Shown here: in pieces, positions 13,131 through 38,745 of the stretch
Position numbering within the stretch: position 1 is the first letter of the stretch
Layout of the letters: each line of letters begins with the position of its first letter
Assembly (NCBI GenBank): GCA_964016885.1
Contig: OZ024746.1
Span: forward strand, 85,684,001-85,748,000
Length of the DNA stretch: 64,000 bases
DNA from: Eledone cirrhosa
Lineage: Eukaryota
Direction of reading: 5' to 3'
Notes under the pieces: generated by a model
The model's input: the letters and a program-made list of their open reading frames with translations, nothing else
Database searches by the model: none
Told to the model about the DNA's origin: nothing
Program-made: the position numbers and the translations under genes

Positions 13131-13271
13131 TAGATATATAGATATAATGATAAACTTAAGGAAATTAACAACAAAGAGAAGACAAGACAATGAACGTTGC
13201 CTTGTTTTCGTTCGTTGACTTGTCCTCTCTTTATTAATTTTCCCTAATTTATCATTATATCTATATATCTA
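13131..13271. repeat. Imperfect palindrome (about 65-bp arms) embedded in (TA)n
   Basis: 13131-13196 is an approximate reverse complement of 13209-13271. Confidence 0.85.
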
Positions 13272-13404
13272 TCTATATATATATATATATATATATATAT
13301 ATATATATATATATATATATATATATATTTATTTATATATATATATATATATATATATATATATATATATATATATATATATATATATATATATATATAT
13401 ATAA

Positions 13405-14164
13405 GAGTCAGGACAACAACACGACAGTAACATAGACAACATAGAAATTAGAATAATATCTAAACATAGAAATGACCCAGCAGGTAGGCAAATCAGAGAG
13501 GCCAGTGAAATAGAACTTAGAAGGCCAAGGCTAAACAGAAAGAATGAATGGAATAACAACACCAACCAAACAAACAACACTGACTTAAGAGAAGTATAAA
13601 TAAATAAATAAATAAATAGATAAATAAATAAATAAATACATACACAAGCACAATAACAACAAACACATATAAACACACACTAGTAAAGATAGAATACATT
13701 AACTAATACACAGTCACCCAATCACGAACACACATCAAACAAAACACTATACACACACGCAAACGCATGCGCAAAGAAGACAAAATAAAATAAACAAATA
13801 AATAAATATATAAACAGACTAAATAAAGATGGCGCAGAAAATACAATGTAACGGGAGGAAACAATAGCACCACTGATGATGTTGCAGATGTGCAACGAAA
13901 GAACTTTGATAAACTATATATATGTGTTTGTGTCTATATTGTATCTGTATTATTTTTGACCGTTGGCAACATTGAGGACCGAATAAATTAGATTACCGAT
14001 ATAAAAGACATAGAAGCGAAAAGCGAAAACCAACCAAACAGTGAGTGTGTTCTGTTATTAATTCTGGCAATATTATACAAATATGACCCTCCCCAAGTAT
14101 AACAATATTTGTTTCGACACACGATTTCATATCAAAAACCTCGCAAAACTAATTCATCGCCGTT
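13405..14164 (+). mobile_element. 5'-truncated Penelope-like element (family C): GIY-YIG C-terminus, 3' region and hammerhead
   Basis: 13405-13599 translates to [49 protein letters not shown], the RxIREAxxIxxxxPxLN signature; hammerhead core at 13873; (TA)n on both sides. Confidence 0.8.
13869..13910 (+). ncRNA. Minimal type-I hammerhead ribozyme motif
   Basis: CTGATGA-T-GTTGCA-gatg-TGCAAC-GAAA-GAAC-TT; perfect 6-bp stem II, weak stem I. Confidence 0.8.
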
Positions 14165-14202
14165 ATATATATATATATATATATATATATATATATATAT
14201 AT

Positions 14203-14470
14203 GCAGAGGTTATATTTAATTTGTTGGGATTCAACAAGCTTAAAACATTTTTATAACTGATATAAAGCACTCAACAGTTTAGTGGAGTAAATACACAATA
14301 TATTAATAAATGGAAACTATATTTATAAAACCATATTTATTTTATTATACATATTTCAAGCGCAACCAAGGCAAATTATGGTGCGCTTTCATCAGATAAA
14401 ATACAGATTTGTTTTATAAATAAATATTGACAGACCCGGAAAAAAGACAACCTTAACGGTTGGAGCTTCC
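14203..14470 (-). mobile_element. Penelope-like terminal repeat fragment (family B)
   Basis: Homologous to 34250-34567; contains a hammerhead; bounded by (TA)n. Confidence 0.75.
14336..14406 (-). ncRNA. Type-I hammerhead ribozyme motif
   Basis: Minus strand: TATTTTAT-CTGATGA-AAGCGCACCA-taatttgcct-TGGTTGCGCTT-GAAA-TATGTATA-ATAAATA. Confidence 0.8.
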
Positions 14471-14480
14471 TATATATATA

Positions 14481-14665
14481 TAACGAAGGAAATGTGGTAA
14501 GGAACCAGATGGACCATAATGCACCAAAGTACTCAATACATAGGGTCGTAGAGTGGGTAATAGGAACAAGTATGACTCCGACGGCAGAGCTCAAGCCGTT
14601 TCGTAAGTCCAGAATTAGCCGTCGAAACGGCTTGAGCTCTGCCGTCGGGGTCATACTTGTTCCTA
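14481..14665 (-). mobile_element. Fold-back element family A, copy 1
   Basis: Arms 14561-14603 and 14623-14665 are inverted; about 80-nt unpaired tail; TA runs on both sides. Confidence 0.9.
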
Positions 14666-15159
14666 TATATATATATATATATATATATATATATATATAT
14701 ATATATATATATATATTGCGGCCCTTGAACGTAATAAAATATCATATGTTGCTCTTGATATAGACTTCGCAGGGAAAGAACGAGCAGCTCCCTCTGTGGA
14801 GACGCTAGTTGAAACATCAAGGCATATTGTAATGAAACAATACACCGAATATAAATAGTCTGAATGAACAATTGATGTCTTTTGTCTTGTGGATTACTAC
14901 GATCACCTGATCGGATATACATATACACGCATTTATATGTGAGTGGGTGGGGGTGGGGTGCATGTGTGTGTGAGTGTGTGTGTGTATATGTGTGTGTTTG
15001 TGAATGTGTGTGTGAGTGTATATTTGTGAAGTTAGTTAAGTAGATAGGTTTGTTTGTTTCGTAATTGCTAGCTCTAAAATTCAAAGATCAATTTGATTAA
15101 ATCTCGGTCAGAGTTTAAGAAGCGATAAGAAAGAACCCAAAGCTGCTAGTGTTGTTGTT

Positions 15160-35548: not shown

Positions 35549-36307
35549 TAGATGCACATGTAAGTATGTGTGTGTGTATATATATATATATATATATATA
35601 TGTGTATATACATATGTAAGTATGTGTGTGTATGTAGAAGCTAAAAATAACCTCTTACGCTTTATTTTTTCTTTCATATTTAAATAACTAATATTTCTTG
35701 CAGCTTTTACAATATTGTAATTGGCTGAATCTTACCCCAACTATTTCATCATTATTGATAAATAGACTATTAACCTAGGCCTGCCCCATCAACAAAACTT
35801 CCTTCTCTCTTTATATATATCTATCCTCCATCTCTTGGGCTCCTGCTAACTTAATTATAAGACAACGAATCAATTTCTTTTTTATTTTACTTTATTTTTC
35901 TGCCCACTTTATTTTTATTTTTACATTTCTTTTTTTTAACTGTTATTGACTTAGTTTCTTTCATATGTTAACTCTCATGTTCCCATTACTGTAACTTCGC
36001 ATAGAAAGTTATTCCTAATAGATTAAACCCATGCTCATGCAAGCTAAATATAGCCTGTATGTGGTTGCTGAACTTGTTAGGACCAGAAACCAAATCTTCC
36101 TCAAAACAATCAACATGTTTTGGTCTAAAATAGAAAAAAAAAATTTTTTTTAAATCTTTTAAAAATTAATAAATAAAGCGCATTGGGTAAAATGATTGAG
36201 TGTTCTTGGCTTAGATATCAGAGCTGACCTTGGGTTTCTTCAAGTTAAAGATTGTATTTTTAGATTCTTAGAGTCATCACGTCAATTTTTTTTAATCATT
36301 AAAAGAC

Positions 36308-36780
36308 ACTAGCTGAAAAACCACCCTTCGGGTGGTTTTCTGCTAGCACGTGTAGTGTGTATATTGATATTATACGCAAGTATATATACATGTAGATATG
36401 ATACATCAAATAAAATCGTAATTGACAATATACATAGAAATTGAGCGAAGACTGTGTTACACTGTCTTATGTAATCAGTAACGTAATCCATGATACATTA
36501 AAAAAAAAGACGATATTATATATAAACTGCATTAGGAGAAAATTAATATGTTTATTTAAGCGATCGCCACCGGAAGTGTTCACATTTGAAAATTTTAAAG
36601 AAGTGAATCTTTAAATAAATAATAAAATATATTTAATGAACAGCCACGAAATTTAGTAGATAAATTATGTAATATTCATTCATTATTTATTCAAAGTAAT
36701 CCAACTTATTTTACTAATGGGATAAAAAATTATAAACCGTACGCAGTCCCGCGCTTCTTATTTTATTATAGTTTAGATTT
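36308..36780 (+). mobile_element. Helentron/HINE-like non-autonomous element
   Basis: Starts ACTAGC with hairpin CTAGC.GAAAAACCACCC-TTCG-GGTGGTTTTC.GCTAG; ends CTTATTTTATTATAGTTTAGAT. Confidence 0.5.
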
Positions 36781-37772
36781 ATTAGATAAAGCGTAAAACA
36801 AAACTGTAAAAAAAAAAAATTAGTTCAAAAATGTCTTGCGTGAAACATCAGAATTGGCGGACAGAATTGCAAATGTGTTACTCCAGGGGATAGCCTGGGG
36901 GCTAAACAGTAACATAAAAAACAACCTGTGTATAGACGATTTGTATTCAGGAACCTATGTGATAATTCTACTGACTGATTCCGTCATTGAGACAACAGAG
37001 ACCAAATAGTTTGTAGCATGAAACTGCTCCATTCCGTCTTTAATATATATATATATATTTTTGTTATAGTTGAGTCAGGGGAAGGACTGTAAATACGAGC
37101 ATTTGCATGATTAGAAACCACGATTCAAGGTTTGCTGTAGGACATCAACGTATCGAATTATACTGAAGCCGGAGATCTGCAGTGGAGTTTAAAATAACTC
37201 CGCTGAGGGCATGCAGGACCTAGTTGATGGTGTTAAATCGGGCAACCAACGACTCGCTAGCTCAGTATACTTAGCTATATAAAGGTATCACACCACTTAG
37301 AAGACCAACACATTTTTTATAATGGTAATTACACTATTTAATTTTTTAAAGGTTTGTGACAATTTTGAGTCCTGTAGGGCTTAAGTCATAATACAAACAT
37401 GTACACGTTCGACAATATTGATTTCTAACAAAGGCACAAGGTCTCAAATTTCCACAATGAATACTGTCGATTAGGATCTATCTCAGTCCCTGATTTGTAA
37501 TTTATTTTATGAACAAAAGAAGGATGACAGACAAGACTGACCGTAGAGGGATTCAAAACCAGTATATAAAGAGTCGTAGCTAGACACTACGAAGAATTTT
37601 GTCTGCTGATCCACTGATTCTCCAAATACTCGACATGTAATGGAAGTGACAGCTAACTTTTCATGCTCTATCTTTATTTTGAAGTTGACGTGACTTTGTT
37701 ATCAATGACGTAAAAAACTGGTTAAATCTTGATCATTGATGATTTCTTTTTCATTCATTTTTCATTCAACCA

Positions 37773-38010
37773 TGATATTCCAATGTAAAAAATGTTATGG
37801 AGACAAAAGTGAATGGAATAGTGTTTATTTCTTTAATATTATTCGTATTAATAATTATATTATTTACGTCATTAACGAAAATCTTTCCATTCAGCCCTGA
37901 TATTCCAATGTAAGAAAATATCGAAGTTATGGAGAGAAAAATTGAATGAAATAGTATCTATTTTTATTATTAATTGTATTAATAATTACAATATTTACGT
38001 CATTAACAAA
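37773..38010. repeat. Diverged tandem duplication (about 125-bp unit, 2 copies)
   Basis: TGATATTCCAATGTAA..GTTATGGAGA..TATTTACGTCATTAAC occurs twice. Confidence 0.85.
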
Positions 38011-38084
38011 AGTCTAGTTTGTTAAAAAATGACAAACTGATAAAAAAAACGACGATTACAAGTACTCCACCTGTGACTTCTTTT

Positions 38085-38412
38085 TAAAGACTACCTTCGG
38101 TCACGAATGACCATGGGATTTGCACCAAGAAAGTTTCCCTCCAAGCCACAAGTCCGGGCAAGGTTGTGGAAGACCAGCAGTCGCCCATGCCAGCCTCCCC
38201 TCTCCCTGCCACCGATGATGTCCAAGCGATAAGCAATGGTCGATACACCTTGACACCAGTGACATCGCAGCTCATTTCTACCGCTGAGTAAATTGGAAAA
38301 CGTGAAATAAAGTGTCTTGCTCAAGGACACAATGCATCACCCGGTCCGAGAATCGAACTCACAACCTACCGATTGCAAGCCCCAATTCTCTACCCACTAA
38401 GCCATGCGCCTT
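38085..38412 (-). mobile_element. tRNA-derived SINE sharing its head with the 35280 family, different tail
   Basis: Minus strand GGCGCATGGCTTAGTGG..GAGTTCGATTCTC..TTGAGCAAGACACTTTATTTCACG. Confidence 0.82.
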
Positions 38413-38704
38413 TAACTATTTGTTAGAAACAGCAACCAATTCTATGCTCTCTGTTATGGGAATTTGCCGCTGCATTCACTGTCCGCTTCCCTCTATATAA
38501 GATAGTTGAATGGGATCTGAGAGTGATTTGACTGCTGTTTTTATCAGAACGAGTAGTTACATGGAAGCTCCTTTGCTTCTTATTGATTTATTAGAAGTCA
38601 CCAGTGTGGAAAAATGAAAATTCGTGAGTACAAACAAGAATTTCGCAAAGAAATCAATATAACTTTCAATTCATTTTTAATTGTCAATACTGGTAAAGAC
38701 TATA

Positions 38705-38745
38705 CCTGTCTGAGGAGGTCTAATGTGATTGAAACATGCATGAAG
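38705..38745 (+). ncRNA. Degenerate hammerhead-like motif
   Basis: CTGAGGA-GGTC-taatgt-GATT-GAAA-CATGCA; G-U-rich stem II, cleavage triplet altered. Confidence 0.4.

Follow-up and report, generated by a model that had tools for sequence, protein, structure and literature searches.

The closest described systems to the sequences analyzed here are Penelope-like elements (PLEs) and the type-I hammerhead ribozymes of their pseudo-long terminal repeats (pLTRs). The DNA in question was a 64-kb stretch of Eledone cirrhosa (the window), of which positions 13131-38745 were examined (the region); the genome measures 3.0 Gb, with 36% GC, and is microsatellite-rich. Hydra-clade PLEs, including Hydra-1_Obim (Craig et al. 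2021, PMC8557442), share with two of the families found here, B and C, an endonuclease of the GIY-YIG type at the C-terminus, without CCHH, a CxCX5C linker, DKT, CxxC plus CxH near the end, a canonical hammerhead, and insertion in (TA)n as an inverted copy with a tail. The hammerhead sequences of B and C differ from that of Hydra-1_oBim; in B, RWK is replaced by RWR, the hammerhead of C is distinguished by a U3-A8 core, a long stem II and a 5-bp stem III, and their tails measure 77-92 nt against 30-40 nt, with copies in the tens of thousands. Neptune and Nematis PLEs (PMC8557442) share the combination of reverse transcriptase (RT) and C-terminal GIY-YIG with CCHH; family A resembles Neptune in its CX2-5CxxC linker and family E may resemble Nematis in DKG and a reduced Cys linker. 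Unlike these, the E lineage carries a CNGUUGA core, and in family A stem I is weak and the loop of stem III is not a palindrome.

Minimal type-I PLE hammerheads (Cervera and de la Pena 2014, PMC4209133) share the extra base between positions 9 and 10.1, the short palindromic stem III, the U3-A8 covariant, mostly solitary motifs derived from truncated PLEs and opposite-strand pairs 100-700 bp apart. Counts in that work are in the thousands per genome, compared with about 130,000 or more here, and U4A or U4C together with A6U is absent from the portion of it that was compared. In the Anolis Poseidon element PAc (Frangieh et al. 2024, PMC11167929) the protein nicks and extends both strands and RT starts at two internal sites bounding the tail, as is proposed here; its hammerhead keeps the C3-G8 catalytic core and cleaves with protein; its catalysis is unneeded for insertion in vitro. 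Non-LTR retrozymes (PMC7229834; bioRxiv 2026.07.22.740005) are likewise short non-coding type-I hammerhead sequences. They are arranged head to tail in tandem, whereas the window elements are dispersed, inverted and, in longer copies, contiguous with PLE open reading frames (ORFs). Hammerhead-bearing PLEs in (TA)n are known biology, (TA)n-targeting Hydra elements of Octopus bimaculoides included (PMC8557442); what is new here is their load, a lineage without the U-turn, and the junction statistics.

The region very probably holds 5′-truncated copies of at least five ORF-bearing PLE families whose pLTR type-I hammerheads abut (TA)n, inserted likely by means of two nick-primed cDNAs. Hammerheads were searched for with two type-I descriptors: a strict one, which demanded a core free of mismatches, at least 3 bp in each of stems I and II, a palindromic stem III and UH, and a relaxed one accepting up to two core mismatches. 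The strict descriptor gave three matches (14395 minus, 32987 and 34469) and none in 30 dinucleotide shuffles of the repeat-stripped region; the relaxed one gave seven, where 12 shuffles averaged 1.8 and reached 4 at most; the additional matches were 20425, 21377 minus, 24058 and, mirroring the last, 23953. An earlier note on this DNA had listed nine hammerheads, four with intact core and five degenerate, and had proposed the comparison with shuffles. All nine were found where named or a few bases off, and eight are real type-I sequences; the ninth, 38710, has broken stems, no (TA)n within 600 bp and only three weak relatives. Among the four taken as intact, 13873 failed the strict descriptor in spite of its intact core, the other three passing. 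Of those taken as degenerate, 20425 is decayed, 38710 broken and 21377 altered by a private U4A, but 20722 has an intact U3-A8 core and the core of 24058 is the norm of its family. The note had overlooked 23953 minus, the second copy of the 24058 motif, and a further family, C, in whose fold-backs the 3′ half of a hammerhead is present.

The core C3 U4 G5 A6 N7 G8 A9 / G12 A13 A14 A15.1 / U16.1 H17, with U3-A8 allowed, was found in families A, B, C, D and G and in the 20722 family. Stem covariation supports the three-stem fold (stem III ATAT versus GCGC), stem I being weak in family A. The 13873 hammerhead has a C-A mismatch in stem I and GAAC, which is not palindromic, in stem III, and family A shares both. 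A palindromic stem III, which the earlier note gives for PLE hammerheads, was present in the strict matches and not in family A and its sisters, which keep a G-C pair round a variable 2-nt loop. The two loop bases vary among the family A-like sisters (GAAC, GGAC, GAGC, GATT).

In genome-wide counts, a B-like pattern gave 58,467 exact matches (control 0) and a disjoint pattern with C before GAAA gave 75,304 (control 3,758), together about 130,000 net intact-core motifs in 3.0 Gb, where both arms and tandem arrays were counted separately and pairing was unenforced, the listed matches mostly pairing. These counts, the shuffles and the covariation refuted, for eight of the nine motifs, the explanation that they are chance matches in AT-rich, repeat-rich DNA. 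Such chance is expected of the relaxed descriptor (1.8 false matches per shuffle, of which 38710 may be an instance), and of the 271 matches that an Rfam scan gave at E ≤10, the best 150 included none to a hammerhead family, being microsatellite and hairpin microRNA noise; for the motifs as a whole its probability is nonetheless negligible. A search of the PDB gave no match.

Fifty-nine evenly spaced 10-kb stretches (590 kb) served as a genome sample. Their 39 strict matches correspond to about one strict motif per 15 kb, or 198,000 per genome (bootstrap 127,000-279,000). The published counts compared are lower: 126,247 for axolotl (PMC7229834), about 9,000 for Xenopus (PMC4209133) and, by Rfam, 235 for the giant squid (PMC6962438). 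At the sampled density 1.69 matches are expected in the region and three were seen (P of three or more, 0.24-0.27), so that the density is ordinary for the genome and the clustering claimed in the earlier note was not confirmed. (TA)6+ runs numbered 21.5 per 10 kb in the region and 24.2 in the sample, and strict matches and TA runs correlated weakly across the sampled stretches (rho 0.33). Outside the window further abundant families were seen, for example with a TTGAAAA core and ACCGGT stem III, often as close inverted pairs.

Copies were extended 5′, as the earlier note had advised, and each of the five families A to E proved to be linked to coding sequence for RT, GIY-YIG or both in its own orientation; the attribution to pLTRs of several unrelated PLE families was thereby confirmed, and the description of mostly non-autonomous lineages was not. 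For C and D this evidence is on the endonuclease side only. Longer family A copies reach an RT with YIDD, a C-x4-CxxC linker (CTNRKCIIC) and GIY-YIG (YIGET). The endonuclease has C-TEGT-C within GIY-YIG and two His, so that both the CX2-5CxxC linker and CCHH are present, and family A is Neptune-type by motif. One copy (L107) is a tandem pLTR-ORF-pLTR with its ORF in broken frames; the window copy encodes the last 60 residues at 92% identity. Family D is old (83-91% identity among copies). Of 20 loci with longer copies, 3 have an apparently Neptune-like endonuclease upstream, in the orientation of the element, with CTEC, YVGQT and His, the linker falling outside the recovered sequence. In family B the pLTR runs directly into an ORF with RWR, DKT and YRDD (L042, a tandem pLTR-ORF-pLTR), and RT plus C-terminal GIY-YIG was found in L042, L111 and L112, with CNCRNKSNC (CxCx5C), CSLC and CKH and without CCHH. 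Among 58 family B homologues, CxCx5C was present in 47, DKT in 51 (DKTN in family B itself) and RW[KR] in 46. Family C has a Hydra endonuclease 1.15 kb upstream (CNCPDRSIC, again CxCx5C, with CNLC and CKH) and a full hammerhead in which the core is U3-A8, stem II is long and the 5-bp stem III ends in GUC; it builds the fold-backs at 14483, 28720 and 33151-34226. By the diagnostics of PMC8557442, which include CxxC and CxH close to the conserved E and N, B and C would belong to the Hydra clade. When eight proteins were compared with Pfam, two matched, both under the cut-off. The tandem pLTR-ORF-pLTR arrangement was not seen for C, D or G. Read from sequence, the window copies are non-coding scraps of autonomous PLE families, the endonuclease C-terminus being kept in the 13873 copy.

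A AAGATGGCG motif lies at 13822-13835 and in sister families (L027, L097), about 45 nt upstream of the family A core, and several inverted arms end at it; it presumably resembles the site for YY1 in L1 promoters. One family A insertion beside an RTE-like long interspersed element (LINE) is repeated every ~60 kb (L016-L020, G000:C12:17.0-17.5 Mb), which suggests a large tandem segmental repeat.

Insertion in (TA)n, as proposed earlier, was evident at most 3′ ends: (TA)n followed in A 14/21, B 18/22, C 45/46, D 12/15 and E 25/36, against a background of 6.2%. Five exceptions were tandem read-throughs, and unselected family C 3′ ends from the genome sample were followed by (TA)n in 16 of 16 cases. 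Internal ends behaved alike (A 24/26, C 18/19, E 7/11). Families A, B, C and E each have two fixed outer ends, giving tails of about 58, 92, 77 and 52-57 nt, respectively. The template bases after both ends are in TA phase (A TATTTG and TATGGC; E TATTTA and CTTATC; B TGTATT and ATATAT), those after the family C internal end read TATTAC, and the TA phase persists in tandem templates (A TATGG, B ATATATT, E CTTATCC). From the TA-phase bases at both template ends we infer priming by annealing of nicked (TA)n.

Copies with an inverted arm and a tail, also reported in the earlier note, were observed in several window insertions and families. Fold-back arms end independently and inversion points vary from copy to copy. 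The tail-less arm was the longer one in 29 of 56 family C copies (shorter in 4, equal in 22), in 6 of 21 of family B (shorter in 10) and in 16 of 21 of family E (shorter in 4), nine of the E set having been chosen by a fold-back-shaped query and part of the C set likewise; among unselected family C arms the tail-less arm was longer in 7 of 14 and the tail arm in none. Because the tail-less arm often reaches further 5′, unlike what is expected of a fold-back, two separately primed cDNAs are favored.

Family C arms also have a sharp 5′ wall: among 41 unselected arms, 32 reach as far as 128-144 nt from the 3′ end and not one extends past this, exact 20-mer genome counts drop from 41,231 to 1,242 across 45 nt, and about 97% of arms are ≤144 nt. 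The wall lies at TCATTTAGTC, within stem II, a sequence which we take to resemble initiator elements. Penelope has an internal pLTR promoter (PMC2377424). The wall would fit run-off at the RNA 5′ end. A self-primed fold-back cDNA, with the wall due to RT stalling at a hairpin or to a splice acceptor, would agree with the many near-equal arms (22/56 in C), with the 8-bp hairpin at the wall and with the existence of PLE pLTR introns (PMC2377424, PMC4209133). Folding back cannot, however, make the tail-less arm reach further 5′, as it does in the proportions given above and, within the window, at 24037 and 34380, and no recurrent exon sequence preceded the wall among the 60 contexts listed of 74; this explanation is improbable.

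With two nick-primed cDNAs, the element endonuclease would cut a (TA)n run on its two strands, and from either nick a separate cDNA would be primed on the element RNA, which offers two fixed TAT sites, one for each cDNA to start from; the two cDNAs would then join head to head to leave an inverted arm plus tail. Priming in the upstream pLTR of a tandem transcript would run off the RNA 5′ end and yield the abundant fold-backs of 100-400 nt, and priming in the downstream pLTR would yield long copies. The hammerheads are predicted to act as stem III dimers, and weakly.

The short fold-backs might instead be independent non-autonomous elements, similar to short interspersed elements (SINEs) or retrozymes, self-transcribed and mobilised in trans. 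The shortness of nearly all family C arms, the lack of an ORF link in family G, a tandem 466-bp hammerhead array elsewhere in the genome and a preprint deriving retrozymes from PLE pLTRs (10.64898/2026.07.22.740005) speak for this. The inversion points differ between copies, though, the short copies match the pLTR of ORF-bearing copies, they are dispersed and not tandem, and those of family C lack the 5′ half of the hammerhead, so that we rate it as quite improbable. No head-to-tail tandem hammerhead array was present in the window. The array elsewhere (G000:C1:5,738,000-5,748,600; L362:594-4001) has units 99% identical, each a full type-I hammerhead with a 7-bp stem I and palindromic stem III, and looks like a non-LTR retrozyme array.

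Several observations weigh against 5′-truncated PLE copies primed by nicked (TA)n. Monomer folding missed the hammerhead fold for most motifs, and all clade names were assigned from motifs. The wall is clear in family C alone: the step in E is 2-fold (1,146 versus 581), and unselected arms of A and B show none. In C it coincides with the apex of the hairpin and with an AG, a possible splice acceptor. The PAc RT start sites are not homologous to the target (PMC11167929), whereas the ends seen here lie at TA-phase microhomology with (TA)n. Finally, family G gave no ORF link among 40 loci, and the short arms of this family frequently terminate at (TC)n or (TATC)n. Its core is canonical family-wide, the U4A of the window copy being private. 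Hydra-like frames near family G copies were rejected, as they lie on the opposite strand or in other insertions. At loci L143-L159 the (TC)n/(TATC)n junctions match the template end AATCT; the target of family G may be different or compound.

The lineage without the U-turn is family E. One copy (L215), arranged as a pLTR-ORF-pLTR tandem, has an open RT-endonuclease frame of 670 amino acids between two motifs 3,333 bp apart, and homologues gave Pfam matches to RT and GIY-YIG. The protein has DKG, C-x4-CP-x5-C and CDRC, which may correspond to the 'reduced linker' of the Nematis clade. Family E is young (median 1.7% from the majority in 32 copies). The core at 24058, CAGUUGA (U4A plus A6U), departs from the canonical core and is family-wide in subfamilies E1 and E2: CAGTTGA with the E stem set gave 2,694 genome matches (control 0), and with positions 4 and 6 open to A/T the first 100 of 1,956 matches all read CAGTTGA. 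E2 is older; its protein identity is 86%, this core was read in 19 of 20 copies, and its stem III is one TA shorter. Between E1 and E2 the 34-nt motif has no substitution, compared with 66/411 in the flanks (16%; P about 0.003). A third subfamily, E3, reads CCGTTGA (U4C plus A6U), has 69% protein identity and no stop over 650 codons, and its 3′ flank is 63% identical to that of E1. In E3 stem II, GGGC/GCCC replaces GGAT/ATCC, that is, two compensatory pairs. The E3 pattern gave 1,702 matches, and of the first 100, 93 read CCGTTGA and 3 CTGTTGA, or about 1,600 CCGUUGA. C3, G5, G8, A9, GAAA, UH and the three stems are retained across the E subfamilies, and position 4 varies between A, C and U where position 6 is U.

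An unrooted tree of 21 pLTR stretches set the U6 forms apart from their canonical cousins (support 0.98); from all other hammerheads we infer that the canonical core was ancestral to the U6 forms. The cousins, the 20722 family, comprise 40 old canonical copies, 8 with C3-G8, 29 with U3-A8 and 3 mixed; this covariation represents two lineages, so the events are not independent. Formation of CAGTTGA from TTGACAA by a 3-nt deletion was ruled out, as the stem I register is unchanged, and a TATA-box reading of the E motif is disfavored by the paired stem II changes. One E2 copy (L176, G000:C3:318.34 Mb) has lost the whole hammerhead by a deletion between short repeats and has a normal 3′ end on (TA)n. 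No letter change was listed at the E core positions in the contigs of three sequencing runs, a weak result that was not used as independent support. A literature search found no report of a CAGUUGA (U4A plus A6U) core among the papers listed; Lunse et al. 2017, outside that search, may list such cores. On hammerheads in cephalopods the literature yielded just the squid count, and on twin priming in PLEs two papers that do not use this term.

The E core changes are predicted to cripple cleavage because mutants of this kind show little activity: in a double-mutant scan of a type III ribozyme, CUGA-region mutants were of low activity except for the C-G swap (PMC9901934), and a natural A6C hammerhead variant is slow (PMC3088659). 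Cleavage is likely dispensable in the E lineage, in which the fold has apparently been kept and the U-turn (U4, A6) lost; a hammerhead-mutant PLE still inserts in vitro (PMC11167929). Our preferred reading, at roughly even odds, gives the retained fold a structural role. Alternatively, CAGUUGA and CCGUUGA could be active variant ribozymes, compensated by dimer formation or by the element protein. The conserved core residues and stems in spite of 63%-identical flanks, the two compensatory pairs and the unchanged E1-E2 motif would fit this, and the anole PLE hammerhead cleaves only with protein (PMC11167929); the mutational data just cited oppose it, as does the drift of position 4 among A, C and U once position 6 is U, as if the U-turn were irrelevant. 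We regard activity as a tentative possibility, below even odds. Slow neutral decay of the E core is unlikely. A fuller scenario for the structural role, also short of even odds, is that a PLE lineage turned its hammerhead into a non-cleaving RNA, A6U coming first and position 4 drifting thereafter, with stems, C3-G8, G5 and GAAA under selection in thousands of recent copies and a load above the published counts compared; the fold would then be a recognition or dimerisation signal for two-strand priming.

Coordinates of the elements are collected in Table 1.

Table 1. Hammerhead-bearing and related insertions in the examined region (window coordinates; clade names by motif).
Feature	Position	Strand	Remarks
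Short fold-back of a repeat-family 3′ end between (TA)n runs	13140..13265		Without hammerhead core; 442 candidates
Family A, Neptune-type PLE, 5′-truncated	13404..14163	+	(TA)35 before, (TA)19 after; GIY-YIG C-terminal coding 13414-13593, then 3′ untranslated region, hammerhead and 58-nt tail
Family A hammerhead	13873-13900	+	Core 13873-13879, stem II 13881-13896, GAAA 13897-13900
Family B, Hydra-clade PLE pLTR piece	14202..14462	-	Complete type-I hammerhead with core at 14395-14389 and a stem I of 8 bp
Family C (Hydra clade) fold-back	14483..14666		3′ half of family hammerhead only; arm with tail at 14483-14603, minus in sense; arm without tail at 14606-14666, plus in sense
Decayed family A sister, 69% identical	20390..20645	+	Core 20425 CTGAATA; compensatory stem II changes; terminates in (TA)n at internal site
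Old canonical cousin of family E	20692..20800	-	Core TTGATAA (U3-A8) 20722-20716; TA repeat replaces stem I 3′ strand
Family G tail-less arm	21232..21405	-	Core 21377-21371, private U4A; 6-bp stem I, long stem II
Family E (Nematis-like) fold-back	23699..24346		CAGTTGA core; (TA)n both sides; arm without tail at 23699-24037, minus in sense, with core 23953; arm with tail at 24038-24346, plus in sense, with core 24058
Family C fold-back	28720..28926		Perfect 130-nt palindrome 28720-28849 plus tail; both arms stop at 5′ wall
Family D, old	32900..33097	+	Minimal hammerhead, core 32987, stem III ACGT; (TA)28 after
Two family C pieces among (TA)n runs	33151..33496	+	33172-33289 tailed, 33422-33496 tail-less
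Family C tail fragments	33962..34226		33962-34024 plus, 34186-34218 minus
Family B sister, fold-back	34250..34565		Full hammerhead, core 34469, on longer arm; short arm with tail at 34250-34379, minus in sense; longer arm without tail at 34380-34565, plus in sense
Possible very old hammerhead	38703..38750	+	Core CTGAGGA at 38710, stems broken

Upstream of the 13140-13265 family, longer copies (L351-L358) read GAAAC...GTC and then CTGATGA, the type-II hammerhead order, with a poor stem I. A LINE 3′ fragment ending in (TTCAAAGTTA)3, presumably CR1/L2-like, is inserted at 33520-33965 within a family C copy, and other LINE-like ORF fragments at 16200-16607 and 19592-20188 are taken by us to be RTE-like and L1/Tx1-like, respectively. 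A SINE-like repeat with many copies lies at 24777-24952, 26253-26405, 26863-27081, 29276-29454 (a fold-back), 40269-40460, 41231-41427 and 60860-61582. Minisatellites occupy 3405-4616 and 48374-51273, with units of 15 bp (83 copies) and 21 bp (138 copies).

The role of PLE hammerheads has been stated as an open question (PMC8557442). In the E lineage, successful families carry naturally occurring U-turn variants and share their genome with canonical cousins, so that it can serve as a test of whether cleavage is required of PLE hammerheads. What was seen at the junctions and the wall extends the in vitro result of two internal RT starts on both strands to genome-scale predictions, which cover the origin of inverted-plus-tail insertions and of solitary pLTR scraps. 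With a strict motif every ~15 kb or so, this genome would seem to carry many unannotated ribozymes, when set beside the squid count of 235 by Rfam (PMC6962438).

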